Part shown: positions 26,673-52,684 of the stretch, piece by piece | Position numbering within the stretch: the first letter of the stretch is position 1 | How the letters are laid out: every line of letters begins with the position of its first letter | Origin: Acidobacteriota bacterium | Lineage (GTDB): Bacteria > Acidobacteriota > UBA6911 | Reading direction: 5' to 3' | DNA: 64,000 nt | Assembly: GCA_012729555.1 (NCBI GenBank) | Contig: JAAYCX010000012.1 | Coordinates: 86,519-150,518 of the forward strand | The notes under the pieces: model-generated | Told to the model about the DNA's origin: nothing | Databases searched by the model: none | Seen by the model: the letters and a program-made list of their open reading frames with translations, nothing else | Program-made: the position numbers and the translations under genes

Positions 26673-27418
26673 CAGGAAAAGAAGCAGTGCGCCTGGCGGC
26701 GGGGCTCGCCCTGTTTTTTGCCGGATGGGGCCGGGCCGTGGAGGAGGGGGCGCGCGGGCCGGACCACGCCGGGTTCCGGGAGTGCGCCGAGTGCCACGCG
26801 CAGCAGGACGCCGCCTGGCGGTCGTCCGCCCACAACCCGGCCACCGGCTGCCTGCGGTGCCACGAACCGGCGGCGAATTCTCCGGGCAGGCTGGCCGCGG
26901 AGCCGGAGGCCCTCTGCTCCTCCTGCCATTCCCAGCGGGCCGTGCTCAGGGGAACGGGGGCCGAGGGGATCGAGGAGACCCGCAGCTTTCACTCCGGCGT
27001 CGCCTGCGTCTCCTGTCACATGACGGGCGGCGGCCACGGCATGAAGCTGCTCCGTCCCGACGACCCCGCCCTGCCCGAGGACCGGGTCGACAGCTGCACC
27101 GCGTGCCACAAGGACAACAACCGGAATACGCGCGCGCGCCAGCTCCGGGACTGGCAGGCATGGTATCGGGAAACCATGGAACCCCTCCAGGCGGGCCTGG
27201 CCGAAATCGAAGCGCGGATGAAAGATCGTCCCGATCTCTTCACCGACGAGGCCCAGCGGAAACTCTCCGGCGTCCGGCGCAACCTCGCGATCATCGAGCG
27301 GGACGGCTCCGCCGGGGCGCATAACCTGGACTATGCCCTGGAAATCATGGCTCTGGCCTCCCGCCGGCTCAAGGAGATCGGTGCGGCGACGGCTCCCGCC
27401 GGGCTCGGGGGACAGTGA
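26669..27418 (+). CDS. Secreted pentaheme c-type cytochrome
   Basis: Signal peptide; five CxxCH motifs (CAECH, CLRCH, CSSCH, CVSCH, CTACH); start overlaps HD-GYP stop by 4 nt. Confidence 0.75.
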   Translation: MTGKEAVRLAAGLALFFAGWGRAVEEGARGPDHAGFRECAECHAQQDAAWRSSAHNPATGCLRCHEPAANSPGRLAAEPEALCSSCHSQRAVLRGTGAEGIEETRSFHSGVACVSCHMTGGGHGMKLLRPDDPALPEDRVDSCTACHKDNNRNTRARQLRDWQAWYRETMEPLQAGLAEIEARMKDRPDLFTDEAQRKLSGVRRNLAIIERDGSAGAHNLDYALEIMALASRRLKEIGAATAPAGLGGQ

Positions 27419-27437
27419 CCCACCGGCGATTCCTCAC

Positions 27438-28106
27438 CTATCTCGAGCGTTTGAGGCCGATCCGGGGGCAGAAGCGGGCGACCGGGCAGCGGCTGCACCA
27501 GGGGGAGGAGGGGACGCAGAGGTTCTGGCCGAAGGTGACCAGGATGTCGTTGAGGCTGATCCAATGGCGCCGGGGGAGCTTCCGGCGCAGGGCGGACTCG
27601 GTCTCGTCCGGGGTCCGGGTCGCCACGTAGCCCCACAGGTTGCAGATGCGGTGGACATGGGTGTCCACGCAGATGCCGTAGTCCCCGAACCCCACGGTGA
27701 GCACCAGGTTGGCCGTTTTCCTCCCGACGCCGGGCAGCGCGAGCAGCCCGTCCATGGACCGGGGCACCCGTCCCGAATGCTCCCGTTCGAGGCGGAGCCC
27801 GATCGCGACGAGGTGCGCCGCCTTGGTACGATAGAAGCCGACGGGGTAGATCAGCCGCTCCACCTCCTCCCGAGCGAGTCCGGAGAGCGCCCGTGGAGTC
27901 GGCGCCCGCCCGAGCAGGCGGCGCGAGGCGGCCTCGGTCACCTTGTCCCTCGTGCGCAGCGAAAGGACGGTGCTGACCAGGGTTTCGTAGGGGCGGTCGA
28001 CCGCCCCGTCGGCGATCACCCCCACCGCCGGGACTTTCCATAGAGGGAGTTCCCGCTTGAGCCGGGCCAGCACCCTGCCCAGCGTCCGCGTATCCATCCC
28101 TTTCAA
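27438..28106 (-). CDS. nth: Endonuclease III (DNA glycosylase/AP lyase)
   Basis: HhH-GPD region LPGVGRKTANLVL and [4Fe-4S] cluster C-x6-C-x2-C-x5-C at C-terminus. Confidence 0.8.
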   Translation of the reverse strand: MKGMDTRTLGRVLARLKRELPLWKVPAVGVIADGAVDRPYETLVSTVLSLRTRDKVTEAASRRLLGRAPTPRALSGLAREEVERLIYPVGFYRTKAAHLVAIGLRLEREHSGRVPRSMDGLLALPGVGRKTANLVLTVGFGDYGICVDTHVHRICNLWGYVATRTPDETESALRRKLPRRHWISLNDILVTFGQNLCVPSSPWCSRCPVARFCPRIGLKRSR

Positions 28107-28579
28107 GGAAGCGCCGGGATCTGGAAGACCGGACCGAGGGCCGAGCGTTTCGGGGCAAGGGCGCGCATGGAAGGCTCCGGGAGGAGTTCCAGGGGTTTGA
28201 TCCCCGACGGGGGGAGGGTGGGGCCGTTCCAGGTCATCATGCCACCGGCGTTGTACACCCGCTCGTAGCCTTCGGACGCCAGGTAGTTCGCCGCGAAGGC
28301 CGCGCGGCCGCCGGTCCGGCAGTAAACGACGACGGCCCGGTCCTTCGGGATCCGGGCCGATTCCCGCATGAAGGGCTCGGGCCAGGCGAGGTGGTAGGGA
28401 CGGCAGGAGTCGTTGCCGATGACGGCGTCGATTTCCTCGATCGTCCTCAGGTCGATAAGGATGAAGTCGAAAGCCGCCCCGCCGGACAGGAACCCCGCCA
28501 GCTGGCCCTGCGCCATCGGGCTGACGGCCGCGTGGCCCGCCGCAACCGCAAAAAGAATCAAAAGCAGGATCTTTTTCAT
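28103..28579 (-). CDS. Periplasmic rhodanese-domain sulfurtransferase
   Basis: Signal peptide MKKILLLILFAVAAGHA; active-site loop CRTGGRA; 4-nt overlap with nth start. Confidence 0.7.
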   Translation of the reverse strand: MKKILLLILFAVAAGHAAVSPMAQGQLAGFLSGGAAFDFILIDLRTIEEIDAVIGNDSCRPYHLAWPEPFMRESARIPKDRAVVVYCRTGGRAAFAANYLASEGYERVYNAGGMMTWNGPTLPPSGIKPLELLPEPSMRALAPKRSALGPVFQIPALP

Positions 28580-28716
28580 GAAATGTCCCTCAAAAACCGC
28601 ATTCTTGACCTGGATCAATCCCATCCGTCCCCCCTGTCTTCATTATTGCAGGTGTAGGGCGCAAAATAAACCCGCGGGTTGAGGATGCGCGATAACATGA
28701 AAAAGGAGGGGCGAAA

Positions 28717-29562
28717 ATGAAGCGCAACATAATCCGGATCGACCAGGAAAAATGCACCGGGTGCGGCCTGTGCGTGTCGGGGTGTCCCGAAGGCGCGCTG
28801 CAGCTCATCGACGGCAAGGCGAGGCTGGTGGGAGACCTGCTCTGCGACGGCCTCGGCGCCTGTATCGGCCAATGCCCCGAGGGGGCGCTGACGGTGGAGG
28901 TACGGGAGGCGGAGGCGTACGACGAAATCCGGGCGCTGGGCAACATCGTCCCCCAGGGGCCGAACGTCCTCGCCGCCCATCTCAAGCACCTGAAGGACCA
29001 TCGTCAGGAGGAGTACCTCCGCCAGGCCGTCGCCTACCTCGAGGAAAACGGGATCCCGTTCGACCCTCCCGCCGACAACGCCCCCGCCGCGCCCGCCGCC
29101 GGGTGCCCCGGGTCCCGGAGCGTAACCTTCGCACCCAGGAGAGAGGGGGAAAACGACGGGGCGAAACACCCCTCGAGGTTGACCCACTGGCCGATCCAGC
29201 TCCACCTGATCTCCCCGGCGGCCCCGCAGTACCGCGACGCCGACCTGCTGATCGCGGCCGATTGCGTCGCCTTCTCCCACGGAGACTTCCACCGGGACTT
29301 TCTCGAGGGGCGCGCCCTGGTCATCGCCTGCCCCAAGCTGGACGCGCGCCAGGAGGCCTACGCCGAAAAACTGACGGCCCTGATCGAGCAGGCCCGCTCG
29401 GTCCGGATTGCCATCATGCAGGTCCCCTGCTGCGGCGGCCTTCTCAACCAGGTGCTCCAAGCCGCCGCGCGGGCCGGGCGCAAGCCTCCCATGAGCTGCG
29501 TCGTCGTAGGGCTGGAAGGGGAAATCCTCCGCGACACCCCCGTGGAGGCGGGTGCGGCCTAA
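28717..29562 (+). CDS. 4Fe-4S dicluster ferredoxin-domain protein
   Basis: Two CxxCxxCxxxCP motifs (CTGCGLCVSGCP, CDGLGACIGQCP) at N-terminus; C-terminal domain with CC pair, unknown function. Confidence 0.55.
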   Translation: MKRNIIRIDQEKCTGCGLCVSGCPEGALQLIDGKARLVGDLLCDGLGACIGQCPEGALTVEVREAEAYDEIRALGNIVPQGPNVLAAHLKHLKDHRQEEYLRQAVAYLEENGIPFDPPADNAPAAPAAGCPGSRSVTFAPRREGENDGAKHPSRLTHWPIQLHLISPAAPQYRDADLLIAADCVAFSHGDFHRDFLEGRALVIACPKLDARQEAYAEKLTALIEQARSVRIAIMQVPCCGGLLNQVLQAAARAGRKPPMSCVVVGLEGEILRDTPVEAGAA

Positions 29563-29765
29563 TCCTCGAGGATGAAGGTGACCTTCAGCTGAACCCGGAA
29601 TTCGGTCACCCGGCCGCCGTCGTCGACGACCACTTCCTGGTTTTCGATCCAGGCGGATTTGACGTTCTTGAGGGTCTTGGAAGCGCGGGCGACCCCTTCC
29701 CTGATGGCGTCTTCAAAGCTCTTGGCGGACGATGATTTGATTTCGGTAACGCGTGCGATGGCCAT
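29559..29765 (-). CDS. Dodecin family flavin-binding protein
   Basis: ~68 aa, pattern IELIGSS...FEDAIREGVARASKTLKNV....E.....V.....V.LKV.F.LE typical of dodecin. Confidence 0.55.
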   Translation of the reverse strand: MAIARVTEIKSSSAKSFEDAIREGVARASKTLKNVKSAWIENQEVVVDDGGRVTEFRVQLKVTFILED

Positions 29766-29837
29766 GAGAGGCTCCTTTTGATAGAGGATTGAGGGAAAAG
29801 CTATGGATCCCATTGTACCACAAAGCCCGCGCGCGCG

Positions 29838-31523
29838 TCAGGATCGGGGTGGCGCGGCCGGGTAGCCCAGAGCGGCCAGCGCGTGCGGGATCGAGAGGTA
29901 TCGATAGGTCTCGCCGTATTTTTCCCCCCACCCGGCGTGCTCGACCAGGTCCCGCACCGGCCCCTTCATCCCGGCGAACGCGAAGCGGATCCCCTGGTGG
30001 GCGTACGCCTCCATGAGTTCCTCCAGTTCGTCGATCGAGACGGCGTCGATGTCGTTGACGCCCGAAAGATCGAGCAGGATCAGTTTCACCCCCGGACGCC
30101 CGGAGAGGTCCCCGGCCAGGCGGTCCTCCAGGAATTTCATGTTGGCGAAAAAGAGGGACGCGTCCGGCCGGAGAATCAGGACCTCGGGGTGGCGCTTCAC
30201 CTCCGGGTAACGGAGGACGTTGCGGAACACCCCCTCGCTCTCGAGGTACCCGAGCTCGGCGGTGTGCGGGTGCGAACTGCGCCAGATGAAAAGCCCCAGG
30301 GAGAAGACCATCCCGATCAGGAGCCCCCGATCGAGCCCCACGCCCAGGGTGCAGGCGAAGGTGATCAGGAGGATCGCCCCGTCCGATTTCTTGATCCGGA
30401 AAAGGCGGATGGCGTCGCGGGCGTCGATGAGGCCGACGACGGCCACGATGATGACGGCGGCAAGGACCGCGTTGGGGAGGTGATAGAACAGCGGAGTCAG
30501 AAAGATGAGGGTGAGCAGGATGAGGGCGGCCGTGACCAGCGACGCCACCTGGGTGCGCGCGCCCGACTGGTGATTGACCGCCGTCCGGGAGAACCCCCCG
30601 GTCACCGGGTAGCCGGAGGAAAACGCGGCCGCCATGTTGGCCGCGCCCAGGCCGATCAGTTCGCGGTTGGGGTCCACCTTGTACCCCGACTTCGCCGCCA
30701 TGTACTTGGCCACCGATATCGATTCCATGAAACTCACGAAGACGATGGCCAAGGCGTCCAGGAAGAGCTCCTGGATCGCCAGCGGGTTGAACGAGGGGAG
30801 CGACAGGGGCGGGAGGCCGCGCGGCACCTCCCCCACGGTCCGGATGCCGAGCTCCCCCCAGGTCCAGGTCAGCAGGGAGCCCGCGATGACGAAGAGGATG
30901 GCCGAGGGGAGCCGTGGATACATCTTCCGGAGCACTACCATCCCGGCGATCGAGGCGAGGCCGAGAACCAGGGTCGGCGCGTGGATGTCCCCCGCCCCGC
31001 GAACGATTTGCTCCAGCAGTTCGAAGACCGAATGCCCCCCGCCCCCTTCCACTCCCATCAAATGCCGGACCTGGCTCAGCGCGATGACCAGGGCGGCGGC
31101 GGCCGTGAATCCCCCGATGACGGCGTGGGAGAAGAAATTGATCAGGAAACCGAACCGGAGCAGGCCGGCCGCGAGCTGGAGGACGCCCACCATCAGGGCC
31201 AGCAGCAGCACCAGGCGCACGTATTCGGGGGAGCCCGGGGGCGCGAGGCGCGAGCAGGCGGACAGGGTGAGGAGCGAGGCCATCGCGACCGGGCCGACGG
31301 CGAGATGGCGCGAACTTCCCAGAAACGCGTAGACGGCGAGCGGGATCACCGAGGCATAGAGCCCGATGACCGGGGGCAGTCCCGCAAGCATGGCGTAGGC
31401 CATCCCCTGCGGCACCAGCATCACCGCGATCGTCAGCCCGGCGGCGGCGTCGGCGGAGAGATCCCCCCGGTCATAGCCCGGCAGCCATCCCCGGCGCCTG
31501 CGGGTGGAACGCGCCATGGTCAC
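29838..31523 (-). CDS. SulP family anion permease with C-terminal STAS domain
   Basis: SulP TM core and STAS domain (ILLDLSGVNDIDAVSIDELEEL); 561 aa. Confidence 0.85.
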   Translation of the reverse strand: MTMARSTRRRRGWLPGYDRGDLSADAAAGLTIAVMLVPQGMAYAMLAGLPPVIGLYASVIPLAVYAFLGSSRHLAVGPVAMASLLTLSACSRLAPPGSPEYVRLVLLLALMVGVLQLAAGLLRFGFLINFFSHAVIGGFTAAAALVIALSQVRHLMGVEGGGGHSVFELLEQIVRGAGDIHAPTLVLGLASIAGMVVLRKMYPRLPSAILFVIAGSLLTWTWGELGIRTVGEVPRGLPPLSLPSFNPLAIQELFLDALAIVFVSFMESISVAKYMAAKSGYKVDPNRELIGLGAANMAAAFSSGYPVTGGFSRTAVNHQSGARTQVASLVTAALILLTLIFLTPLFYHLPNAVLAAVIIVAVVGLIDARDAIRLFRIKKSDGAILLITFACTLGVGLDRGLLIGMVFSLGLFIWRSSHPHTAELGYLESEGVFRNVLRYPEVKRHPEVLILRPDASLFFANMKFLEDRLAGDLSGRPGVKLILLDLSGVNDIDAVSIDELEELMEAYAHQGIRFAFAGMKGPVRDLVEHAGWGEKYGETYRYLSIPHALAALGYPAAPPRS

Positions 31524-32077
31524 ACTCCAGATTTCTCCAGGAAGCAGAGAAGCGCGAAAATCGCTGCGGCCACGACCGCCACCACCACCCAGGCGTTGAG
31601 CTTGAGGATCTCGGGAATCGTCCGGGCGCCGAAATCCCCCCGCTCCAGGACCGGTTTCTGCAGGGCGGGATAGGCTGCGGCGAATATCCCGGCCCCGATC
31701 AGGATGCCGAGAACGCCGCCGAACAGGGCGTCGAGCGACCCCTGCCCCACCGCCCCCGCCGCCGTCCCCGGACAGTAGCCCAGGATGCCGAAGCCGAGTC
31801 CGAAGATCAGCCCGCCCGGGACGATGGCGCCCATGGACCCCGGCTTGGGGTGGAGCCGGGCCAGGCCCAGGCTTCGGAGGGCGTGGACCCCGATCATCCC
31901 GGTCAGGACGGCGCTCAGCATGATCTTGACCACCGTAAAATCCTCGAAGAGCAGCTGCCCGATGATGACGTCGAACCGGGTCGCCCCCCCCCTTTGGAGC
32001 AGGAAGCCGAAACCGATCCCCAGGAGGAAGCCCAAAGTCAGCTGCAGCCCTTTCCTGCCATGTATCGCCTCGAGCAT
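31520..32077 (-). CDS. YeeE/YedE family sulfur-compound transporter, second half
   Basis: 185-aa multi-TM protein with GxxxG-rich helices; RBS AAAGGGGGGG; ORF-track N-terminal extension rejected. Confidence 0.6.
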   Translation of the reverse strand: MLEAIHGRKGLQLTLGFLLGIGFGFLLQRGGATRFDVIIGQLLFEDFTVVKIMLSAVLTGMIGVHALRSLGLARLHPKPGSMGAIVPGGLIFGLGFGILGYCPGTAAGAVGQGSLDALFGGVLGILIGAGIFAAAYPALQKPVLERGDFGARTIPEILKLNAWVVVAVVAAAIFALLCFLEKSGV

Positions 32078-32088
32078 GCGCCCCCCTT

Positions 32089-32616
32089 TCAGAGCAGAAC
32101 CCGGTAGATCAGCATCGCGGTGGCGATGCCGCCGGCGAAGAAGCAGACGACGGCGAGCCAGCTGCTCGCCGCCAGCTGCAGCGTCCCGCTGATGCCGTGC
32201 CCGCTCGTGCACCCCCCGGCCCAGCGGGCGCCGATTCCCATCAGAACCCCGCCCGCCAAGGCGACGCCCCAGCGGAGGAGGCCGCTGTCTCCCGCCGCCT
32301 CGCGCCACAGCGGCGGGACCCAGGCCAGTCCGAACCCCCCCGAAAGGAGGGAGGAGAGCAGCGCCCCCAGGACGATGCCCACGACGAGCATCCACTCCCA
32401 GTCGATCACCGGGGCGAACTGCCGGTAATAGGGCTTCTCGACGACCCCTTTTCCCCTGAAGGCCTTTTCGATCATCCCGCTGCTGCGCGCGAACGCGGTC
32501 GAACAGCCGATGGGCTTGTCCGAGAGCAGGAAAGCGAGCCAGCTCAAAACGCCGATGCCGGCCCCGACGGCGTAGGGCGACCAGCGTTCCATCGTCAGCC
32601 AATGCAGCCAATCCAT
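32089..32616 (-). CDS. YeeE/YedE family sulfur-compound transporter, first half
   Basis: Conserved GCTSGHG motif, ~5 TM. Confidence 0.65.
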   Translation of the reverse strand: MDWLHWLTMERWSPYAVGAGIGVLSWLAFLLSDKPIGCSTAFARSSGMIEKAFRGKGVVEKPYYRQFAPVIDWEWMLVVGIVLGALLSSLLSGGFGLAWVPPLWREAAGDSGLLRWGVALAGGVLMGIGARWAGGCTSGHGISGTLQLAASSWLAVVCFFAGGIATAMLIYRVLL

Positions 32617-32673
32617 GGCAACCTCCCGAACCCGATAACGGTTTTCGTCTCCCCCCTCCCCGAGGCGATGTTC

Positions 32674-34086
32674 CTACGAGGTCCTCGGGACGTGCGGCGC
32701 CACGCACATGGGACATTCGGGGCTGAACCCCGCGGCGCTGTATCCCGTCATGCCGCCGGCGACGTTGCACACGTTCGCAAAACCCGCCTGCTTGAGCAGG
32801 GAGGCCGAAAGGCTGGAGCGGTGCCCCGTGCTGCAGATCACGGCCACCGGCCGGCTCTTCTTCAGGGAACCGTGCCGGGTACGCAGGTCGGGAGCGGGAA
32901 TATTGACGGCGCCCTCGATATGAACGGCTTCGTACTCGCCGGCGGCCCGCACATCGACCAGCGTGAGTTCCGACCGCCCTTTCATGAGCTGGTTCAATTC
33001 CCGGACCGAAACCTGCGGCACGTGCCCGGTCGGGAGCCCTTGGCGCGACCACTCGAACATGCCGCCGTCGAGATACCCCACGACGCGGTCCAGGCCGACG
33101 CGCCGGAGCAGGACGCCGGCCTCGTAGGCCTCCTCGCCCGATCCGGCCACGAGCAGGATGTCGTGGTCGGGCGGGAGGACCCAGCCGGCGAAGGTGGAGA
33201 AATTCCCGCTGATGTCGATGTTGTACGCGCCGGGGACATGCTGCCCGCCGAAGGCGTCGTAGCTCCGGATGTCGAGCACGATCGTGTTCTTCTTTCCCGC
33301 GGCCTTGCTGAACCGCGCGGGGTCCATCAGGAGAATGCCGGGGAGGGTGTGGACCCTGGCGGGCCCCTTGCCGTTGATGGCGCTGCAGCGGCTGAAATGG
33401 TCCGGGGCTGCCGGCATGTCGGTGGTCAGCGAGCGGATGAACTGCTCGCGGTCCGGGATCTGCAGCGCCGGGTTGCAGCGCCGCTCGTACCCGATCGTCG
33501 TCCAGCGTTTCGCCCCCATGGCGCGCCCGCAAAGGCTGCCGGCGCCGTGGGCGGGATAGACGTCGCAGAAATCGGGAAGCGCCATGAGCTTGCCGTGGAG
33601 GCTGTCGTAGAGCTTATGGGCCAGATCGCGCGCCTTGCCGGGGAAGAGGTCGGGCCGGCCGACGTCGCCGACGAACAGGGTGTCCCCGCAGAAAACGGCC
33701 GCCGGCTCCTTTCCGCGGCTGCGGTCGGTGACGACATAGCTGATATGCTCCGGGGTATGGCCCGGGGTCTCCAGCACCCGGATGCTCATGTTTTCGATCC
33801 GGAAACTGTCCCCTTCCGCGACCGCGCGGTGCCTGAAGCGGCATTTGGCCGATTTGGGGGCGTAGATCACCGCCCCGGTGGCGTCCGCCAGGTCCAGGTG
33901 CCCGGAAATGAAATCGGCATGCAGATGGGTTTCCAGGATATGGGTGATCTTCATCCCCATCTCCTCCGCGGCGTGCAGGTACACTTCGATGTCGCGCTGC
34001 GGGTCCACGATGGCACAGGTGTCCGTCCCGCCGAGGAGGTAGGAACTGTGCGCAAGGCCTTTCACGAAAAACTGTTCTACATACAT
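32674..34086 (-). CDS. Persulfide dioxygenase (MBL fold) fused to tandem rhodanese domains (CstB-like)
   Basis: MBL metal motif THLHADFISGH, two rhodanese domains with C-terminal catalytic CSTGHRS. Confidence 0.8.
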   Translation of the reverse strand: MYVEQFFVKGLAHSSYLLGGTDTCAIVDPQRDIEVYLHAAEEMGMKITHILETHLHADFISGHLDLADATGAVIYAPKSAKCRFRHRAVAEGDSFRIENMSIRVLETPGHTPEHISYVVTDRSRGKEPAAVFCGDTLFVGDVGRPDLFPGKARDLAHKLYDSLHGKLMALPDFCDVYPAHGAGSLCGRAMGAKRWTTIGYERRCNPALQIPDREQFIRSLTTDMPAAPDHFSRCSAINGKGPARVHTLPGILLMDPARFSKAAGKKNTIVLDIRSYDAFGGQHVPGAYNIDISGNFSTFAGWVLPPDHDILLVAGSGEEAYEAGVLLRRVGLDRVVGYLDGGMFEWSRQGLPTGHVPQVSVRELNQLMKGRSELTLVDVRAAGEYEAVHIEGAVNIPAPDLRTRHGSLKKSRPVAVICSTGHRSSLSASLLKQAGFANVCNVAGGMTGYSAAGFSPECPMCVAPHVPRTS

Positions 34087-34285
34087 ATCTCATCTCCTGT
34101 CTGAGGTGCGTGGGAAAGATGCCGATCGATCATCTCGTTCTTTTACCCTAAATCCGAGCCCCCTGTCATCGCAAATCGGCGCCGGCGGCCCGGCCGCGGG
34201 GGGGTTGACACGTCCCGCGGGCCGATGGACAATGCCATCGGCCCCCGCTTCGGGGAGCGCGCACAGGACAAGGAGAGCATCCCCC

Positions 34286-35308: not shown

Positions 35309-37153
35309 TCAATCCCCGTCCTCTCCCGGGAGGACGCGCACCGCCCCCTGGTCGGCCGAGGCCGCAAACAGGGCGTAGGCCCGCAGCGCCTCGGACACCT
35401 TCCGGTCGCGCCTCGGCTTGAAAGCCGCCTTCCCCCTGGCCAGCTCCTCCCTCCTGCGCGCCTCGAGTTCCCCTTCGCCGACCCGGACTTCGATGGTCCT
35501 GGCGGGGATGTCGACGGCGATCGTGTCCCCGTCCCTCACCAGGGCGATCGCCCCTCCGGAGGCGGCTTCGGGCGACACGTGCCCGATGCTGAGCCCGGAG
35601 GTCCCCCCGGAAAACCTGCCGTCGGTGATGAGGGCGCATTCCGTCCCCAGGTGCCGTGACTTGATATAGGAGGTGGGGTAGAGCATCTCCTGCATGCCGG
35701 GGCCGCCGCGGGGCCCCTCGTAGCGGATGACCACCACGTTGCCCGCCTGTACCTCCCCGCCCAGGATCCCTTCGCACGCCGCTTCCTGCGAATCGTACAC
35801 GCGGGCGGTGCCCGTGAAGCGGTAGATCGACGGGTCCACCCCCGCGGTCTTGACGATGCAGCCGCTGGGTGCCAGGTTGCCGGTGAGCACCGCGAGCCCG
35901 CCGTCCCTGGAATAGGAGTGTTCCGTGTCCCGGATGCACCCGTTTTCCCGGTCCAGGTCGAGCTCCGGGTAGGCGTTGTCCTGTGAGGCCAGCACCAGGT
36001 TGCGCCCCCGGGCGCCCGGCGCGCTCAGGTAGAGAGTGCGGGCCTCGTCGCCCGCCGTGGGCCGCGCGATGTCGTACCGGTCGAGGACGGCCCCGAGGCT
36101 CGGGGCGTCGACCCGGCCGACGGCCGGGTCGACGAGGCCCGCCCGGTCGAGTTCGCCCAGGATGGCCATGATCCCTCCCGCGCGGCTGACATCCTCGAGG
36201 TGGTAGGAGGAACTGGGCGCCACCTTGCACAGGACCGGGATCCGGCGCGAAAGCGCATCGATGTCGGCGAGGGTGAAATCGACCTCCGCGGCCCGGGCGA
36301 CGGCCAGGAGGTGGAGCACGGTGTTGGTCGACCCCCCCATGGCGATATCCAGGGCCATCGCGTTCAAAAACGCCTGCCGAGTCGCGATCGAACGCGGGAG
36401 GACCGAGGTATCCCCGTCCCCGTAGTAGGCCTCGGCCATCTCGACGATGCGCCGGGCTCCCTGCTCGAACAGCCCCATCCGGTTTCGGTGGGTGGCCACC
36501 AGGGTGCCGTTGCCCGGAAGCGCCAGGCCGAGCGCCTCGGTGAGGCAGTTCATGGAATTGGCCGTGAACATGCCCGAACAGGACCCGCAGGTGGGACAGG
36601 CGACGGTTTCCAGCTCGGCCACCTCCCGGTCGGGAACGGCCGGGTCGGCCGCCATCACCATGGCGTCGATCAGGTCGTAGCGCCGGTCCCCCATCACCCC
36701 CGCCTCCATGGGGCCGCCGGAGACGAAGATGGCGGGGATGTTGAGCCGCATCGCCGCCATCAGCATGCCGGGGGTGATCTTGTCGCAATTCGTGATGCAG
36801 ATCATGGCGTCGGCCGTGTGGGCGTTCACCATGTATTCGACGCTGTCGGCGATCAGTTCCCTCGAGGGGAGGGAGTAGAGCATGCCCCCGTGCCCCATGG
36901 CGATCCCGTCATCGATGGCGATGGTGTTGAATTCGGCGGCAAAGCACCCCTGGGCCTCGATGATGCCCTTGACCCGCTGCCCGATTTCGTGGAGGTGGAC
37001 ATGGCCGGGGACGAACTGGGTGAAGGAGTTGACGACGGCGATGACGGGCCTGCCGATCTGCTCCTCGCGCATGCCGTTGGCGCGCCAGAGGCTGCGGGCT
37101 CCCGCCATTCTTCTCCCCTCCGTGGACGTCGCGCTTCTGAGTCTGATTGCCAT
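35309..37153 (-). CDS. ilvD: Dihydroxy-acid dehydratase
   Basis: N-terminus [30 protein letters not shown]-type cluster region [11 protein letters not shown], 614 aa. Confidence 0.9.
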
Positions 37154-37187
37154 GATGGTCCTTTCTCCCCGGCGGCCGGCCGGGCGG

Positions 37188-37373
37188 TTACGGTTCCCCG
37201 TCGCCCGCGTGCGCCAGGGTCTTGACGATGAAGAGGGCGAAGACCGCCAGCAGCATCCCAAGGAGGAACCGGTCGTCCCCGGTCCTCACGGGCAAAAACG
37301 CGTACAGGGCGATCCCGATCAGCACGGCGTAGCACGCCAGGGCCGCGATCACCCGGCGGCGGGATCCCCTCAT
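37188..37373 (-). CDS. Possible small 2-TM membrane protein
   Basis: 61-71 aa ORF with two hydrophobic helices between ilvD and Fe-S oxidoreductase genes. Confidence 0.25.
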
Positions 37374-37389
37374 CCGCCGCGACGGCCGG

Positions 37390-39423
37390 TCACTTTCGGG
37401 CATCGTCCAGGCTTTCCGCGGTCAGCGACGCGATATCGATGACACGCATGCTCTCGTCGACATTGAGCAGCTTCAGCGAATCCCCGAGCATGTGCATGCA
37501 GTAGGCGCAGCCGGTCACGATCGTATCCGCACCCGCTTCATGCGCCTGCCGGACGCGCAGGTTGTTGATCCGCTCCCCCCGCTTCAGGTCCATGAAATAA
37601 TGCCCTCCCCCCGCGCCGCAGCAGAGGCTCTTTTCGCGCCTGTTTTTCATTTCGGCGAGCTCCGCGCCCGGGATCGCCCGGAGCACCGAGCGGGGGGCGT
37701 CGTAGATCCCCTGGTAGCGGCCGAGGTAACAGGGGTCATGGTACACCATCCGCCCCCTCCCGCTCCCCGGCCGGATCCTGCCGGACGCCATCAGCCTCTC
37801 GATGTACTCGGTGTGGTGAACGACATTGTACGAGGCCCCGAACTGGGGGTATTCGTTCTTGAAAACGTTATAGCAATGGGGACACCCGGTCAGGAGCGTG
37901 TGGAACCCGCGCTGTCCGAGCAGCTCGATCTGTTCCCGGGCCGCCTGCTGAAACACCATCTCCTGCCCCAGGATACGGGCGGGGTCGCCGCAGCACCTCT
38001 CGTCCGCGCCGAGAACGCCGTAATCCACGCCGCAGCGCTCTAGCAGGCGGCAAAGGTCCTCGGCGATCCTGTGCTTCTGGGGATCGAACGTCACGCAGCA
38101 GCCGATCCAGTACAGGACATCGACCGACTCCCCCGGCTTGACCACGCGCAGCCCGGCCCGTTCGATCCAGTCGGTCCGTTCCGACTGCGGGCCGAAGGGG
38201 TTGCCTCCGGTCTCGAACAGGCGCAGGGCGCGGCCCGCTTCCTCAGGAATGCGCCCCTGGATCAGCACCTCGTTGCGCCGCAGCTCCATCAGGGTATCCA
38301 CGTGCTCGATCATGGCGGGGCAGACCTCCACGCAGGCGGCGCAGGTCCGGCAGTGCCAGATGAACTCCTCGTCGAACGCCCTGCCCACGATATCGGCCTT
38401 CTCCCCCTCCTCCGCGCCCGCCGCCTCGTCGAGCTGGGCCTTCATGCGCGCGATCAGCTGCCGCGGGGAAAAATAGTCCCGGTCCGCCATGTAGGCGGGG
38501 CAGACCTCGTCGCAGCGTCCGCACAGGATGCAGGCGTCCAGGTCCAGGCGCTGCTTCCAGCTGAACTCCTCCGGTTTCTGGATCCCGATCCGGATCTCCT
38601 CGCTTTCGGCGCTCTCCATCAGCTTCTCGATGTCCTGGCGCCGGAGCTCCCCCCGCGGCCCGAGCTTGGAGAGGAAGGCGTTGGTCGGCAGCGCCAGCAT
38701 GTGAAAGAACTTGGTGTAGGGAATGAGGGCGATCCAGCCCATGACCAGGACGGTGTGGAGCCACCATAGCGCCGCATGCGCCCCCCGGGCGGTTTCCCCG
38801 GCCATCCCCGCAAAAATCGGGCTGAGGCCCCACCCCACGAACGAGAGCTCCTTCCAGGGATCCCCGTTGGCCCCGATCCTCGCCCCCTCGACCAGGTAGC
38901 CGGTCACGACCAGGGCGGCGACCAGGAGGAGCACCAACCCGTCTTCACGGGCGACGGGGAGCGTCCCCGGCCTGGCGACATACCGGCGCCAGGCGGCCAT
39001 GCCCAGGCCGGCCAGGATCAAGAGCCCGGCCAGCTCGCTCGCCACGGAAAAGAAGACGTAGACCCCCCCCTTGAAGATCTCGAGATCCAGGCCGAACAGG
39101 AGGTTCCCATCATACTGGACCATGACGATCAGGGTGGTGATGAAAAGAACGAGGAAGGAGTAGAAGAGCAGGCCGTGCAGGAGTCCCGGGTAGAAATTCC
39201 GGCGCACCCGGTTCTGGAGCAGCGTCTCGCCCAGGAGGATCTTCAGGCGCTTTCCCCAGTCGGAAAATCTCTCGCCGTCCTCCTTCCCCCGGCGCCAGGA
39301 CCGCACGCGCCGGCACATTCCCCAGGCAAAGACGGCGACGGCAGCGGCAAACAGCACATACATCACCCAGGCCTGGGAGACATTCCACATCAGGGGGCGG
39401 GTAGCTTCGGAAAGGGGGGGCAT
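37390..39423 (-). CDS. Membrane-bound Fe-S oxidoreductase: NarI/HdrE-like cytochrome b fused to HdrD-like 2x[4Fe-4S] plus CCG domains
   Basis: N-terminal ~6 TM with conserved His; ferredoxin motifs CILCGRCDEVCP and CRTCAACVEVCP; CCG motifs (CCVTFD, CCGDP, CPHC, CCGAGGG, CAYC). Confidence 0.75.
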   Translation of the reverse strand: MPPLSEATRPLMWNVSQAWVMYVLFAAAVAVFAWGMCRRVRSWRRGKEDGERFSDWGKRLKILLGETLLQNRVRRNFYPGLLHGLLFYSFLVLFITTLIVMVQYDGNLLFGLDLEIFKGGVYVFFSVASELAGLLILAGLGMAAWRRYVARPGTLPVAREDGLVLLLVAALVVTGYLVEGARIGANGDPWKELSFVGWGLSPIFAGMAGETARGAHAALWWLHTVLVMGWIALIPYTKFFHMLALPTNAFLSKLGPRGELRRQDIEKLMESAESEEIRIGIQKPEEFSWKQRLDLDACILCGRCDEVCPAYMADRDYFSPRQLIARMKAQLDEAAGAEEGEKADIVGRAFDEEFIWHCRTCAACVEVCPAMIEHVDTLMELRRNEVLIQGRIPEEAGRALRLFETGGNPFGPQSERTDWIERAGLRVVKPGESVDVLYWIGCCVTFDPQKHRIAEDLCRLLERCGVDYGVLGADERCCGDPARILGQEMVFQQAAREQIELLGQRGFHTLLTGCPHCYNVFKNEYPQFGASYNVVHHTEYIERLMASGRIRPGSGRGRMVYHDPCYLGRYQGIYDAPRSVLRAIPGAELAEMKNRREKSLCCGAGGGHYFMDLKRGERINNLRVRQAHEAGADTIVTGCAYCMHMLGDSLKLLNVDESMRVIDIASLTAESLDDARK

Positions 39424-39695
39424 ACTTCAAACCTCTCTTTCTTTTCTGTTCTTTGTCCCGAGGGTCATGGCACCGTGAGCATGGGTCGAACGCACTTCCA
39501 TCCCGTTACAAAATGATCCATTTTACCCTAATCCACGGCCTTCAGGAAGACCGCTTCCGGTAAATCAGGGGAGTATACCCACCCGGAGCCCGTCCGAAAA
39601 GGAGGAATCGGCGGTGGAATCCCCCGGGCATTTCTGGTTAACTCAGTCCGGGGCCGTCGCCCCGCGGATATTGTCACCCGAGAGGAGCCCATACC

Positions 39696-40271
39696 ATGAA
39701 GGTCGTCGCGGTCAACGGCAGCGGGAAGAAGGACGGGAATACCTTCCTCCTGCTGAACATCGTCATGCAGGAGCTTCGGGCCGAGGGGATCGAAACGGAC
39801 CTGATCCAGCTCGCCGAGGGCGCCCCCATTCAGGGGTGCACCGCCTGCATGAAATGCCTGGAGAGGAAGAACCTGAAGTGCGCGGTCGACTCCGACCCGT
39901 TCAACGAGTACTTCGAGAAGATCGGCAGGGCGGACGGGCTGCTGCTCGGCTCGCCCGTCTATTTCGCCGACATCACCGCCGGGATGAAAGCCCTCATCGA
40001 GCGCTGCGGCTTCGTGGCGCGGGCCAACGGCAACGTCCTGAGGCGCAAGGTGGGGGCGGGGGTCCTGGCCGTCCGCCGTGCGGGGTCGAACCACTCCCTG
40101 GCCAGCCTGAACCATCTCTTTCTCATCAACGAGATGATCATTCCCGGCTCGAACTACTGGAACGCGGGGGTCGGACGGATGCCGGGCGAAGTCCTGGCCG
40201 ACGCCGAGGGGGTGGCCACGATGAAGACGCTGGGGGTCAACATGGCCTGGCTCCTCAAGCGCCTGGCCTGA
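39696..40271 (+). CDS. Iron-sulfur flavoprotein / NAD(P)H-dependent FMN reductase (Isf-like)
   Basis: Flavodoxin-like fold MKVVAVNGSGKKDGNT; compact Cys motif CTACMKC...C typical of Isf. Confidence 0.7.
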   Translation: MKVVAVNGSGKKDGNTFLLLNIVMQELRAEGIETDLIQLAEGAPIQGCTACMKCLERKNLKCAVDSDPFNEYFEKIGRADGLLLGSPVYFADITAGMKALIERCGFVARANGNVLRRKVGAGVLAVRRAGSNHSLASLNHLFLINEMIIPGSNYWNAGVGRMPGEVLADAEGVATMKTLGVNMAWLLKRLA

Positions 40272-40321: not shown

Positions 40322-40984
40322 CTATTTGAAATGGGCCACCGTCTGGGCCAGGATCGCCTTCTGCTCCGGCCGCAGCTTCAGCGTTTTCGCGATGGCGGCC
40401 GGGTCGATCATCGCCCGCACGATGCAGGCGAGGTTCTCGCTCGCGCAGAAGAGGTACACGTTCTGGGCGATGAACCCGGTATTGGCGAAAGACCAGGTCT
40501 CCTCCACCTCCGGCATCCGCTTCCCCCCGAAGGAAGCCCGGGCCATGTCGGCGACATAGATCAGGTTCAGCGGCGCCTCCGTGACGAACGGCTGCTGACC
40601 CGCGACGGCCCGCACGTCCTCGCGCCCCAGCACCTTGAGCTCGTGCTTCTTCGGGTCATAGAGATAGAGCCCGTCGGCCGTGGTCAGGTAGATGTCGATG
40701 TTCTGCCAGTCGGCCGCCGACGGGGCCGTTCGGTGACCCCCTTCCCGGTTCACCCCGTCCGCCGCCCAGAGCAGGTTGGAGACCACCTGCATCGACAGGG
40801 GCTTGTCCGGTCCGAAGCCCCCCCGCGTGCTCTTGCGCAGCTTGAGCGCCTGCATCAGGGGCATCCCCCCGTCGGTCTGGGCCGGCGGCAGCTTGATCAC
40901 GTCCTCCCCCTGGGCCGAGGCCGGCCCCGGGGCCACCCACAGCATCAACCCGACAACGGCACAGGCTATCAATGTCCTTCTCAT
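40322..40984 (-). CDS. Secreted SagB-type/nitroreductase-family protein
   Basis: Signal peptide MRRTLIACAVVGLMLWVAPGPASA; nitroreductase-like fold. Confidence 0.5.
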   Translation of the reverse strand: MRRTLIACAVVGLMLWVAPGPASAQGEDVIKLPPAQTDGGMPLMQALKLRKSTRGGFGPDKPLSMQVVSNLLWAADGVNREGGHRTAPSAADWQNIDIYLTTADGLYLYDPKKHELKVLGREDVRAVAGQQPFVTEAPLNLIYVADMARASFGGKRMPEVEETWSFANTGFIAQNVYLFCASENLACIVRAMIDPAAIAKTLKLRPEQKAILAQTVAHFK

Positions 40985-41988
40985 CGCTCCTCCTCCTGGC
41001 TGCATAACAAATTCGGATCGTGTCGCTCCCGGCGGCCCGAGCCGCCCGCGAAAATCGCGCGCGGGTTGCCGACCAGCATCGCCCGGATCTGGGCCCGGTC
41101 GACCCCGCGGGACAGGAGCGCCGGAATCACGTCGTCGGAAAGGTGGCCATAATGCCAGTTCGGCACCTCCGCCGCCCGTTCTTCCGGGAATGCATCATTG
41201 TAGCAGGAGGCGTCGTGCGAGAGGACCATTTTCGCCGCGTACCCCATCCGGCAGAGCCGGGCCACGGTGTCGACCCGCCTCTCGAACCCGAGAAGGGGGT
41301 CGATGCCGAACCGGTCCATCCCGATGCAGGCCCCCTTCTCCATCATCTCCCGGAGGTAGTCGAGATCGGTCGTGTCGCCCGAGTGGCCGATGACGACGCG
41401 CGCGGGGTCCACCCCCTCCCCGGCGAAGACGCGGAGCTGGTCGAGCCCGTTGCGGCTGCGGGCATGGGTGTGGGTACAGATCGGCACCCCCGTGGCCAGC
41501 TGCGCCCGTGCCGTCGCCCGCAGGACCAGCTCCACGTCCGGGGTCAGCCCGCGCCGCCCGGTGGCGCACTTGAGCACCGCCGCCCTCACCCCCGTCCCCC
41601 CGATCCCCTCCCGGACCTCCCCGATGAAGGTCTCGACGAGCGCCCGGCCCGGATCGGGGTGCGCCCCGAGCTCCGGGGGCAGCCGGTCGAGCACGAAGAC
41701 CCCGGCCGCAACGATGATGTGAAGGTCGACCCGGGCGGCGACCTCCTGGATCCTCGGAAGGTACCGCCCGGCTCCCACGACGGTCAGGTCCACCAGGGCG
41801 TCGATCCCCCGCTCCTTGAGCCGGCCGAGGCGGTCGACGGCCTCGCCCACCCGCCGCTCCTCGTCCGGAATGCTCTCGGGATGCCTGAGGCCGGCGGGGG
41901 AGGAGAGGAGAAAGAGGTGCTCGTGCATCAGCACGGCCCCCAGCTCCGCCGCATCCACCGGCCCCCTGACCGTATCCACCCATGCCAT
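40981..41988 (-). CDS. Phosphotriesterase-related (PTE family) amidohydrolase
   Basis: HEH metal motif (LMHEHLF), carboxylated Lys region AVLKCATG, HTH...GHSGD motifs. Confidence 0.7.
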   Translation of the reverse strand: MAWVDTVRGPVDAAELGAVLMHEHLFLLSSPAGLRHPESIPDEERRVGEAVDRLGRLKERGIDALVDLTVVGAGRYLPRIQEVAARVDLHIIVAAGVFVLDRLPPELGAHPDPGRALVETFIGEVREGIGGTGVRAAVLKCATGRRGLTPDVELVLRATARAQLATGVPICTHTHARSRNGLDQLRVFAGEGVDPARVVIGHSGDTTDLDYLREMMEKGACIGMDRFGIDPLLGFERRVDTVARLCRMGYAAKMVLSHDASCYNDAFPEERAAEVPNWHYGHLSDDVIPALLSRGVDRAQIRAMLVGNPRAIFAGGSGRRERHDPNLLCSQEEER

Positions 41989-52602: not shown

Positions 52603-52684
52603 ATTCCCTGATTGCAACGGTTCCCCCCCATCGTCAAATGAGATACAATGCATACCTCGACCGCGTTGGCGGGTGGGGAGAGCG

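Follow-up and report, generated by a model that had tools for sequence, protein, structure and literature searches.

A probable EtfD/EMO-family electron wire encoded divergently from an Isf-type flavoprotein in uncultured Acidobacteriota

A 677 amino acid protein encoded in the 64-kb stretch of DNA analysed here (the window) is probably a one-polypeptide electron wire of the EtfD/EMO family, with ETF as the most likely donor and menaquinone as the acceptor. [quoted passage not shown] In the literature, EMO is found in fatty-acid degraders containing MK/MMK, and cryo-EM structures are available for the proteins of M. smegmatis (9OJN; residues marked Ms) and S. aciditrophicus (residues marked Sa). 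For the uncultured Acidobacteriota of anoxic habitats, the assignment would provide a plausible route from β-oxidation (or reverse enoyl-CoA respiration) to menaquinone. The EtfD/EMO respiratory enzyme is also a tuberculosis drug target. The features of the locus are:

37390..39423, minus strand: EtfD/EMO-family gene, 677 aa (ORF, Pfam, phmmer against 9ojn, Foldseek)
38659..39423, minus strand: NarI-like 5-TM heme-b domain, residues 1-255 (hydropathy, AF2 helices, 9ojn alignment)
38299..38559, minus strand: segment with Fer4_8/Fer4_10 matches (aligned to Ms EtfD Cys301/304/307/311 and 412/415/418/422)
37393..38133, minus strand: HdrB-like non-cubane-cluster (2xCCG) domain, residues 431-677 (two CCG matches, Ms EtfD alignment)
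37188..37403, minus strand: 71-aa ORF with two hydrophobic helices (~18-40 and ~45-66), with a 14-nt overlap at the stop codon of the 677-aa gene
39424..39695, no strand: divergent intergenic region of 272 nt between the 677-aa and 191-aa ORFs
39696..40271, plus strand: Isf-type iron-sulfur flavoprotein, 191 aa, FMN_red fold (Pfam, Cys motif)

Domain architecture and family membership

The 677-aa ORF begins with an ATG codon and has a third-position GC content (GC3) of 0.88, compared to 0.93 for the divergent 191-aa ORF in a genome with 67% GC; both ORFs thus carry a strong coding signature. Identical copies of the 677-aa protein are present in at least 24 public contigs, and both its architecture and the Isf-type neighbour are confirmed as real, far above chance. 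Pfam searches assigned Nitrate_red_gam to residues 126-248 (28.3 bits, gathering threshold 22.9), Fer4_8 to residues 295-371 (44.9 bits) and two CCG domains to the C-terminal part (114.4 bits), the latter two also above their gathering thresholds. Hydropathy analysis and an AF2 model place five TM helices within residues 14-251, with hydropathy segments at residues 14-38, 77-110, 119-145, 154-184 and 217-235. The model, which is of moderate confidence (pLDDT 70.7, pTM 0.59), also has short helices that follow TM I and TM IV, and this topology equals the one published for EMO. The earlier note on this DNA had described a single chain that combines a NarI-like cytochrome b with two [4Fe-4S] motifs and two CCG domains, and ORF, Pfam and AF2 data all agree with this description, which is also the published three-domain layout of EtfD/EMO. 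The common LutA/GlpC type, which has no membrane cytochrome, does not apply, as the 5-TM heme domain is present.

Comparison with solved structures points to the same family. When phmmer was used, 9ojn was matched over the full length and in both halves with E=5e-90, while the runners-up, SdhB and HdrB fragments, reached E values of 7e-10 or higher. Foldseek likewise retrieved 9ojn as the sole full-length structural match (E=2e-27, TMq 0.73/TMt 0.68), whereas LutA and HdrB cover the CCG part alone (TMq ~0.3). The first CCG region aligned significantly to EtfD alone (E=5.8e-27); HdrB could not be aligned there with significance (E=1.1), and the absence of the capping His from HdrB is taken from the published papers.

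In all 120 homologs listed, the NarI-like and CCG Pfam domains are joined in one chain of 654-706 aa, although databases label these proteins as '4Fe-4S dicluster domain-containing protein' or 'Fe-S oxidoreductase/nitrate reductase gamma subunit'. With the membrane domain as query, 912 representative clusters were found at E<=1e-10, and about half of the best 150 are full-length fusions. The view that such a fusion is unusual, because the two parts are normally split into two subunits, does not hold for a family that is defined by it: the architecture is already described and widespread, and the window protein adds one more member.

Cofactor ligands and the predicted electron path

The 677-aa protein contains two CxxCxxCxxxCP motifs (C298/301/304/308 and C358/361/364/368), the first of which aligns to Ms C301/304/307/311. 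They are followed by two CCG motifs, CCG1 with C442, C477, C478, C514, H516 and C517, and CCG2 with C565, C601, C602, C639 and C642, whose ten Cys fit the HdrDE motif pair CX31-39CCX35-36CXXC. CCG1 aligns to Ms C503/C538/T539/C581/H583/C584. Across the 120 homologs, the mapped residues are invariant except for C361 (119/120) and W230 (at least 90%).

In the heme domain, H83 and H241 align to Ms H78/H241 and are invariant in the 120 homologs and in all loci. In the solved enzymes, the corresponding residues on TM II and TM V are the axial ligands of the proximal heme b (Ms H78/H241, Sa H87/H251). A third invariant His, H223, precedes H241 by 18 residues, a spacing that is the same in Ms (223/241) and Sa (233/251), and His216 is invariant as well. 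R303 corresponds to Ms R306, the partner of the heme propionate in the 9ojn alignment, and Phe90 and Trp230 occupy the positions of the menaquinone-contacting Phe85 and Phe230 of M. smegmatis. The published residues for the twin heme, quinone and Ca2+ in Sa EMO are E22, A101, H109 and E187; spacing, not an alignment, suggests that the invariant T97 and D105 lie near the A101 and H109 positions. A 706-aa protein (P0177) was considered as the S. aciditrophicus EMO and rejected, as it is without the published residues.

The C514-P-H516-C517 segment aligns to Ms C581-P-H583-C584, and in both EMO structures the proximal non-cubane cluster is completed or capped by the His (Ms H583, Sa H534) that neighbours the last ligand position of the first CCG motif. 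This EMO signature is present in every homolog examined. About 60 homologs from several phyla were compared, and nearly all of them retain H83/H223/H241, the 18 ligand Cys and H516; the exceptions are substitutions of the published type at C478 (two loci, Ms-type CT/CS) and at C517 (eight loci, Sa-type CxHG, with 48-52% identity to the window protein). These motif variants provide indirect support for placing the window protein inside the EMO radiation. In the window protein itself, the five-Cys distal-cluster site is complete (CC...CPHC), which is a clade-level feature and unlike either solved EMO. Because all five Cys are present, an Hdr-like non-cubane [4Fe-4S] cluster is predicted, and not the linear [3Fe-4S] cluster of Ms or the [4Fe-5S] cluster of Sa. 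As the distal Fe-S site of the family varies between the latter two forms, the full Cys ligand set of the window protein and of most relatives would be a third state, for which a structure appears worthwhile.

The domain architecture, the conserved ligands, the fold match and the ETF genes beside relatives are observations, whereas the cofactors, the way in which electrons flow and the donor used by the window organism are inferred by homology to the two cryo-EM structures, as follows. The C-terminal HdrB-like domain would be the docking site of a cytoplasmic flavoprotein in its reduced state, most likely ETF (EtfAB) that is recharged by acyl-CoA dehydrogenases. Electrons would then pass through the two non-cubane Fe-S clusters (ten Cys and His516) and the two cubane [4Fe-4S] clusters (eight Cys) and reach menaquinone by way of the proximal heme b (His83/His241), with the five helices anchoring the protein in the membrane. 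If His223 carries a distal or twin heme, quinone chemistry could occur at the outer face and be coupled to the proton-motive force. The quinone linkage proposed in the earlier note stands.

The same note had further suggested a disulfide or thiol redox module. Spelled out, the protein would then be a menaquinol-linked reductase of disulfides, thiols or other sulfur compounds that resembles HdrDE or DsrMK and uses its CCG clusters for catalysis. All ten CCG Cys are indeed present, as in catalytic HdrB/HdrD, the top NCBIfam match is the thiol:fumarate reductase TfrB, and several sulfur genes are located 3-10 kb away (an MBL-rhodanese fusion, two YeeE/YedE-type Sulf_transp genes, SulP-STAS and a rhodanese). 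Nevertheless, this function is very unlikely. His516 is invariant and, as judged from the EMO structures, caps the proximal cluster at the position of the Hdr substrate, for which reason the clusters are better explained by electron transfer than by catalysis. The first CCG region is related significantly to EtfD and not to HdrB, and the TfrB match stays far below its cut-off (168.5 versus 385 bits). This also applies to DsrK (57.5 versus 400), HmcF (60 versus 750), TmcB (68.5 versus 735), GlpC (79 versus 278), GlcF (44.8 versus 333) and LdhH (100 versus 800). The linkage to sulfur genes was rejected, because the MBL-rhodanese neighbour (family 26) recurs in just three near-identical loci. Between the sulfur genes and the 677-aa gene lie ilvD and a SurA-like gene.

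Gene neighbourhood and candidate partners

The divergently encoded 191-aa protein matches FMN_red (PF03358) with 101.4 bits and contains the motif C48-x2-C51-x2-C54-x7-C62, which agrees with the compact Isf motif CX2CX2CX5-7C (PMC3164229). Both hallmarks of Isf, the FMN_red fold and the compact Cys motif, are therefore present, and all 28 tblastn matches, among them several copies of the window's own contig, retain the motif. By sequence, no solved Isf chain was recovered from the PDB, where all matches were weak and the best was the Fe-S flavoprotein 'Cd1' (7d38, E=1.9e-5). Thus, the presence of an Isf-type flavoprotein gene 272 nt away is well founded, but its pairing with the 677-aa gene as one module is not. 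At 68% identity or more, most loci of the clade have Isf in divergent orientation and 115-750 nt from the EMO-like gene, yet several clade members (L005/L078, L016, L017, L018, L022, L057) either lack it or have it shifted by 3-4.6 kb; it is absent beside relatives at 63% identity or less, with the exception of L063, and beside all relatives below ~56%. The adjacency is restricted to one Acidobacteriota clade, where it co-varies with ilvD, nitroreductase, PTE and SurA-like genes. As these unrelated neighbours co-vary within the clade, the pairing reads as lineage-specific, inherited synteny, and Isf as a putative partner at most. Neither a sigma-70 nor a sigma-54 consensus nor an Rfam family was found in the 272-nt region, and its sequence blocks are conserved no further than the three nearest relatives.

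This distribution also bears on a variant in which Isf acts instead of, or besides, ETF as the cytoplasmic redox partner in the clade. Ferredoxin or other low-potential electrons would flow via Isf and the EMO-like wire to menaquinone, or quinol would reduce Isf for detoxification, and the small membrane protein encoded downstream might be an extra subunit. The close spacing in most loci, the strict retention of the Fe-S motif and the absence of ETF genes from all those neighbourhoods speak for this variant, as does the published statement that the EMO non-cubane clusters take electrons from a flavin. On the other hand, the synteny pattern, the losses of Isf within the clade and the lack of a shared conserved intergenic element argue against it, and no Isf-EMO interaction was found in the literature searched, which makes the variant unlikely. 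A bolder version is rather improbable, according to which the EMO scaffold of the clade was re-equipped with a fully Hdr-like cluster pair (ten CCG Cys and the capping His), a translationally coupled 2-TM mini-subunit and the divergently encoded Isf, giving a distinct module of three parts, an Isf:menaquinone oxidoreductase. If it were true, Isf and not ETF would exchange electrons with the menaquinone pool, and the respiratory chain of anaerobic Acidobacteriota would have a further point at which electrons enter or leave.

The 71-aa mini-ORF is called as a gene in public contigs and is kept directly downstream in about 24 Acidobacteriota loci of other genomes; the window itself and copies of its contig are among the 31 tblastn subjects. 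It has no significant Pfam match, and its product is a candidate small membrane companion of the 677-aa protein.

ETF and acyl-CoA dehydrogenase genes were found neither in the window nor in ~18 kb beyond its ends (~82 kb together), and no ETF genes occur within +/-7 kb in about 25 loci of the Acidobacteriota clade. Linkage is seen in more distant relatives, where ETF is adjacent in 3 of 70 loci: Siminovitchia terrae (L075, 42% identity) has the order etfA-etfB-EMO-FadH-like, in L060 (51% identity) EMO is divergent from etfB-etfA-iclR-acyl-CoA DH-CoA transferase, and L072 (35% identity) has etfA-etfB-EMO-ACAD. In addition, a 70%-identical relative carries fadB-like and thiolase genes 2.4-5.7 kb upstream. 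In M. tuberculosis, etfD is likewise not known to be linked to etfBA, and the lack of nearby ETF genes is therefore not decisive. Two further observations were counted against the EtfD/EMO reading, namely that the clade keeps Isf and the 2-TM mini-ORF adjacent, and that the full 10-Cys set is as in catalytic Hdr.

The rarity of ETF at these loci would also fit an EMO-fold quinone reductase that serves another dehydrogenase or pathway, as the partners in nearer non-Acidobacteriota relatives could imply. In about 25 loci with 43-70% identity, from Acidobacteriota, Myxococcota, Bdellovibrionota, Nitrospirales and other groups, the EMO-like gene is immediately preceded by a co-oriented gene for a resolvase-N-terminal-like protein of ~167 aa (F1). 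A divergently encoded sCache-HAMP histidine kinase recurs in 13 loci and a sigma-54 response regulator in 11. However, the window has neither F1 nor the two-component system, and two-component regulation is no argument against an ETF donor. Moreover, the ETF-linked L060 falls into the same identity range and shares all signature residues, and service in another pathway thus seems improbable. A possible remnant of F1 in the window was rejected, as tblastn gave no match. As companions of a respiratory enzyme, the mini-ORF and the cross-phylum F1 gene are both uncharacterised; none of these findings overturns current understanding.

Relation to known systems

Among the closest known systems is MsEMO, the mycobacterial EtfD (Rv0338c / M. 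smegmatis EtfD, 9OJN), which likewise combines a 5-TM heme-b domain, two cubane and two CCG motifs in one polypeptide. Both proteins have in common the heme ligands, the third His, the propionate Arg, aromatic residues at the menaquinone site and the C-P-H-C segment, at a Foldseek identity of 26%. Ms EtfD comes from an aerobe and has a disordered C-terminal tail of ~265 residues that is absent from the window protein (1042 versus 677 aa), which belongs to an uncultured Acidobacteriota MAG lineage from anoxic samples. C477-C478 of the window protein correspond to Ms C538-T539, for which reason the linear [3Fe-4S] cluster would not be expected. The S. aciditrophicus EMO (706 aa) is similar in size and has the same three-domain layout, three His with the 18-residue spacing on TM V, the CC dipeptide of the CCG in motif 1 and the His before the last ligand position. 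Its Gly535 is replaced by Cys517, so that a [4Fe-5S] cluster is not predicted.

Methanogen HdrDE resembles the window protein in its overall fold, its cofactor logic (cytochrome b, HdrC-like and HdrB-like parts) and the 10-Cys CCG set. In contrast, HdrDE consists of separate HdrE and HdrD subunits, has an open catalytic site without a capping His and uses methanophenazine and CoM-S-S-CoB, while the window protein is bacterial, encoded by one continuous ORF and equipped with His516. EMO and HdrDE also form distinct phylogenetic clusters (bioRxiv preprint). The DsrMK/HmeCD/TmcBC/HmcEF complexes of sulfate reducers similarly pair a NarI-like cytochrome b with a CCG protein, but as separate subunits, and the DsrK, HmcF, TmcB and QmoC models scored 28-68 bits versus NCBIfam cut-offs of 300-750. 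LutA/GlpC/GlcF are soluble CCG proteins without a membrane cytochrome, unlike the window protein with its 5-TM heme domain. The 191-aa neighbour finally shares the FMN_red/flavodoxin-like fold and the compact Cys motif with the Isf prototype of Methanosarcina thermophila, from which it differs in being bacterial.

A fused membrane protein of the EtfD/EMO family

The locus contains two divergent genes and a small ORF that overlaps the first of them (window positions):

37390..39423, minus strand: EMO-like gene (EMO, ETF:(methyl)menaquinone oxidoreductase), 677 aa, ATG start
39696..40271, plus strand: Isf-type (iron-sulfur flavoprotein) gene, 191 aa
37188..37403, minus strand: 71-aa ORF, with a 14-nt overlap across the stop of the 677-aa gene

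The two longer ORFs are separated by 272 nt and show a third-position GC content of 0.88 (677 aa) and 0.93 (191 aa), which is the bias of genuine genes in a sequence of 67% GC. In Pfam, the 677-aa protein matches Nitrate_red_gam at residues 126-248 (28.3 bits; gathering threshold 22.9), a 4Fe-4S dicluster domain at residues 295-371 and two CCG domains (114.4 bits summed), the latter two also over threshold. Hydropathy predicts five membrane segments (14-38, 77-110, 119-145, 154-184 and 217-235). The 191-aa protein scores 101.4 bits as an FMN_red flavoprotein, and its motif C48-x2-C51-x2-C54-x7-C62 matches the compact Isf motif CX2CX2CX5-7C (quoted in PMC3164229). All 28 full-length matches by tblastn, among them several copies of the contig that carries the window, keep the motif. 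The earlier note had thus described the sequence accurately.

The same note considered the HdrE+HdrD or DsrM+DsrK-like fusion unusual, but it corresponds to the known EtfD architecture, and the 677-aa gene is a previously unannotated member of the EtfD/EMO family. The sole strong PDB sequence match spanning both the membrane and the soluble half is 9ojn_A, 'Iron-sulfur-binding reductase' (E=5e-90), while the runners-up are SdhB and HdrB fragments (E>=7e-10). The protein in 9OJN is Mycobacterium smegmatis EtfD, solved by cryo-EM (PMC13083937). A 2021 study of EtfD (Rv0338c) calls it a 'chimeric enzyme' that joins a NarI-like cytochrome-b, a 4Fe-4S dicluster and two CCG domains; beta-oxidation requires the enzyme, which also interacts with ETF (PMC8593149). 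In syntrophs, the same family is named EMO (ETF:methylmenaquinone oxidoreductase), and a 2026 preprint reports the structure of the Syntrophus aciditrophicus enzyme and its ETF complex (10.64898/2026.08.18.745454). An AlphaFold2 model of the window protein, built on a 45-sequence alignment (A1), is of moderate confidence (pLDDT 70.7, pTM 0.59) and contains five long membrane helices with short helices after TM I and TM IV, a layout that equals the published EMO topology. In Foldseek against the PDB, 9ojn alone matches over the full length (E=2e-27, TM 0.73/0.68, 737 columns); LutA and HdrB align to the CCG part alone (TMq ~0.3).

The family is widespread. A word-indexed search with the window protein gave 377 matches, and the 120 listed range from 654 to 706 aa, each with PF02665 and CCG; they are labelled 'Fe-S oxidoreductase/nitrate reductase gamma subunit' by JGI and named as Acidobacteria MAGs by NCBI. 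Searching the membrane domain alone (residues 1-260) against 1.84 billion representatives returned 2037 proteins at E<=1e-3, 912 at E<=1e-10 and 86 at E<=1e-30. By listed length, 76 of the best 150 of these have the fused size of 600-750 aa, and the remainder mostly look like short-contig fragments. A scan of GTDB species genomes identified 70 homolog loci in Acidobacteriota, Myxococcota, other 'Deltaproteobacteria', Eisenbacteria, Bdellovibrionota and Nitrospirales, as well as in a cultured Bacillaceae species, Siminovitchia terrae. The nearest named record is the Acidobacteria MAG Zod_Metabat.919 (96% identity); a homolog with 69% identity is encoded on the chromosome OY761556.1.

Ligand residues and the capping histidine

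Residues were mapped by HMMER alignment to 9ojn and from the ligand lists of the published EMO structures.

Residues of the window protein and their counterparts in M. smegmatis EtfD (Ms) and S. aciditrophicus EMO (Sa)
His83, His241 (Ms His78, His241; Sa His87, His251): proximal heme b ligands
His223 (Ms His223; Sa His233): third conserved His
Arg303 (Ms Arg306): heme propionate contact
Phe90, Trp230 (Ms Phe85, Phe230): menaquinone-contacting positions in Ms
Cys298/301/304/308 (Ms Cys301/304/307/311): cubane cluster ligands
Cys358/361/364/368: cubane cluster ligands, second set
Cys442, Cys477-Cys478, Cys514-Pro-His516-Cys517 (Ms Cys503, Cys538-Thr539, Cys581-Pro-His583-Cys584): first CCG motif
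Cys565, Cys601-602, Cys639, Cys642: second CCG motif

Across 120 homologs with 63-100% identity, almost every one of these residues is invariant; the less strict positions are Cys361 (119 of 120) and Trp230 (at least 90%). In about 60 proteins of the wider locus set, the heme histidines, the ligand cysteines and His516 are retained, barring substitutions of Cys478 and Cys517. The third conserved His precedes the proximal ligand His241 or its counterpart by 18 residues in the window, Ms and Sa proteins. Even the mono-heme mycobacterial enzyme retains all three histidines; what decides the number of hemes is the position of TM helix II (10.64898/2026.08.18.745454). A fourth membrane-domain histidine, His216, lies seven residues N-terminal to His223 and is invariant down to about 45% identity, with A, Y or F in remoter homologs; by its spacing from His223 it corresponds to Ms Glu216, where the HMMER alignment is gapped.

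In both solved EMOs, the proximal non-cubane cluster is completed or capped by the equivalent of His516, at the CoM-binding position of heterodisulfide reductase (PMC13083937; 10.64898/2026.08.18.745454). The clusters of EMOs are therefore electron carriers and not a catalytic site. A quinol-linked disulfide reductase, in line with the disulfide or thiol redox module that had been proposed for this locus, is argued against by the presence of this capping histidine, by sub-threshold scores for DsrK, HmcF, TmcB, TfrB and GlpC, and by the first CCG region, which matches EtfD only.

ETF linkage and proposed electron path

Neither Pfam searches of the other ORFs nor tblastn with three ETF seed sets revealed an ETF or acyl-CoA dehydrogenase gene in the window, and none was found in the ~18 kb of flanking sequence covered on this 240-kb contig. 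In M. tuberculosis, etfD is likewise not known to be linked to etfBA, so that the missing adjacency is weak negative evidence. Within the family, the ETF link is explicit: Siminovitchia terrae (42% identity) has the order etfA-etfB-homolog, followed by a FadH-like Oxidored_FMN/Pyr_redox_2 gene; one locus (L072, 35%) is arranged as etfA-etfB-homolog-ACAD; and in another (L060, 51%), the homolog is divergent from etfB-etfA-iclR-acyl-CoA dehydrogenase-CoA transferase. In an Acidobacteria relative with 70% identity, fadB-like and thiolase genes are located 2.4-5.7 kb upstream of the homolog.

A different electron donor is hinted at by companion genes that recur across phyla in relatives, but these are not present in the window. 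One of them (F1) encodes a resolvase-N-terminal-like protein of ~167 aa directly upstream of the homolog and on the same strand in about 25 loci of several phyla. Its only domain is PF00239 (40.7 bits, matching from profile position 16), without an HTH, and L050, L053, L055 and L067 carry two or three copies of it in tandem. Its frequent companions are a divergent sCache-HAMP histidine kinase, present in 13 loci, and a sigma-54 response regulator, present in 11.

Examples of F1
L031: 9490-9996
L008: 7390-7863
L007: 7441-7890

The donor is most likely ETF, which would be recharged by acyl-CoA dehydrogenases and, once reduced, would dock on the CCG domain. Electrons would then pass from the distal non-cubane cluster to the proximal one capped by His516, and further via both cubane clusters and then the proximal heme b (His83/His241) to menaquinone. 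A distal or twin heme on His223, if there is one, would place quinone reduction at the outer face and couple it to the proton-motive force, which is the situation in Syntrophus. In an anaerobe, reverse operation (enoyl-CoA respiration) could also occur.

Neighbouring genes and comparison with the solved EMOs

With the EMO-like gene set as plus, the gene order is PepF, PTE, nitroreductase, Isf (minus), EMO-like (plus), 71-aa ORF, ilvD, SurA-like (minus) and sulfur-related genes. ORFs within 7 kb of the homolog were clustered over all 70 loci, and the outcome was checked by tblastn. Isf is possibly a redox partner of the EMO-like enzyme, as the adjacency of the two genes suggests, but this adjacency is limited to one clade. 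The Isf gene is close and divergent in most Acidobacteriota loci with at least 68% identity, and is absent or kilobases away in several of them (e.g. L078/L005, L016, L017, L018, L022 and L057); among relatives with up to 63% identity, it is nearby only in L063, and at 3.7 kb in L069. Its distribution parallels those of the ilvD, nitroreductase and SurA-like genes, which have no evident functional link, and this is the pattern expected of inherited gene order. Neither a sigma-70 or sigma-54 consensus nor an Rfam family was found in the 272-nt intergenic region, and no block in it is conserved past the three nearest relatives. The adjacency noticed earlier is real, but a functional module with Isf is unsupported; the initial observation was confirmed, and its interpretation holds in part, without the functional pair and the unusual fusion.

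At 40322-41988 (minus), a gene of the phosphotriesterase family (335 aa) overlaps by 25 nt with a gene for a nitroreductase/SagB-like protein with a signal peptide (227 aa); both are syntenic with the EMO-like gene across the clade. A sulfur-related cluster lies at ~27400-34100, and its position beside the EMO-like gene is shared by the nearest relatives only:

32674-34086: metallo-beta-lactamase and two-rhodanese fusion, persulfide-dioxygenase-like
29838-31523: SulP-STAS
28717-29562: Fer4/AF_0155 protein
28103-28624: rhodanese

The cluster further includes two YeeE/YedE-type Sulf_transp genes and a dodecin, with a multiheme cytochrome c gene just past it; the MBL-rhodanese gene recurs in only three near-identical loci of the 70. 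Elsewhere in the window, a 2272-aa ORF (52673-59491, plus) has DUF748/YhdP/TamB regions together with three POTRA repeats and, at the C-terminus, an Omp85 barrel. It appears to be a single-polypeptide fusion of the TamB-TamA (or BamA-like) kind, and its counterpart on the public contig L079 is a single 2268-aa gene call. On this bacterial contig, ~2-4 kb past the window's right end, Topoisomerase VI A and B genes (TP6A_N/Topo_VI_alpha; Topo-VIb_trans) are found beside a baeRF-family gene (L079 7082-9864).

The 71-aa ORF has two hydrophobic helices by hydropathy, no significant Pfam match and a gene call in public assemblies. Its sequence is conserved immediately 3' of the EMO-like gene in about 24 Acidobacteriota loci of other genomes, and its product may be a small membrane companion or subunit of the enzyme. 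The mechanical ilvD ORF (35309-37261, minus; 650 aa from TTG) overlaps it; in public gene calls, ilvD starts at ~37108 (599 aa), which leaves a 79-nt gap to the 71-aa ORF.

Both solved EMOs lack a subunit resembling the 71-aa product, and they also differ from the window protein at the first CCG motif. In M. smegmatis, Thr at the second 'C' results in a linear [3Fe-4S] cluster, whereas the window protein has Cys478; in Syntrophus, Gly at the last ligand results in a [4Fe-5S] cluster, whereas the window protein has Cys517. The Syntrophus-type CxHG occurs in eight loci with 48-52% identity (L045, L047, L048, L049, L066, L068, L070 and L071) and the Mycobacterium-type CT or CS...CxHC in two (L059 and L061); a 706-aa homolog (P0177) has CNG at the distal non-cubane cluster site, where most members, including the window protein, have all five cysteines. 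Thus, the full-Cys, Syntrophus-type and Mycobacterium-type states share one homolog radiation, in which the window protein represents an EMO-like enzyme whose distal-cluster site is full-Cys and whose gene has two neighbours specific to the clade.
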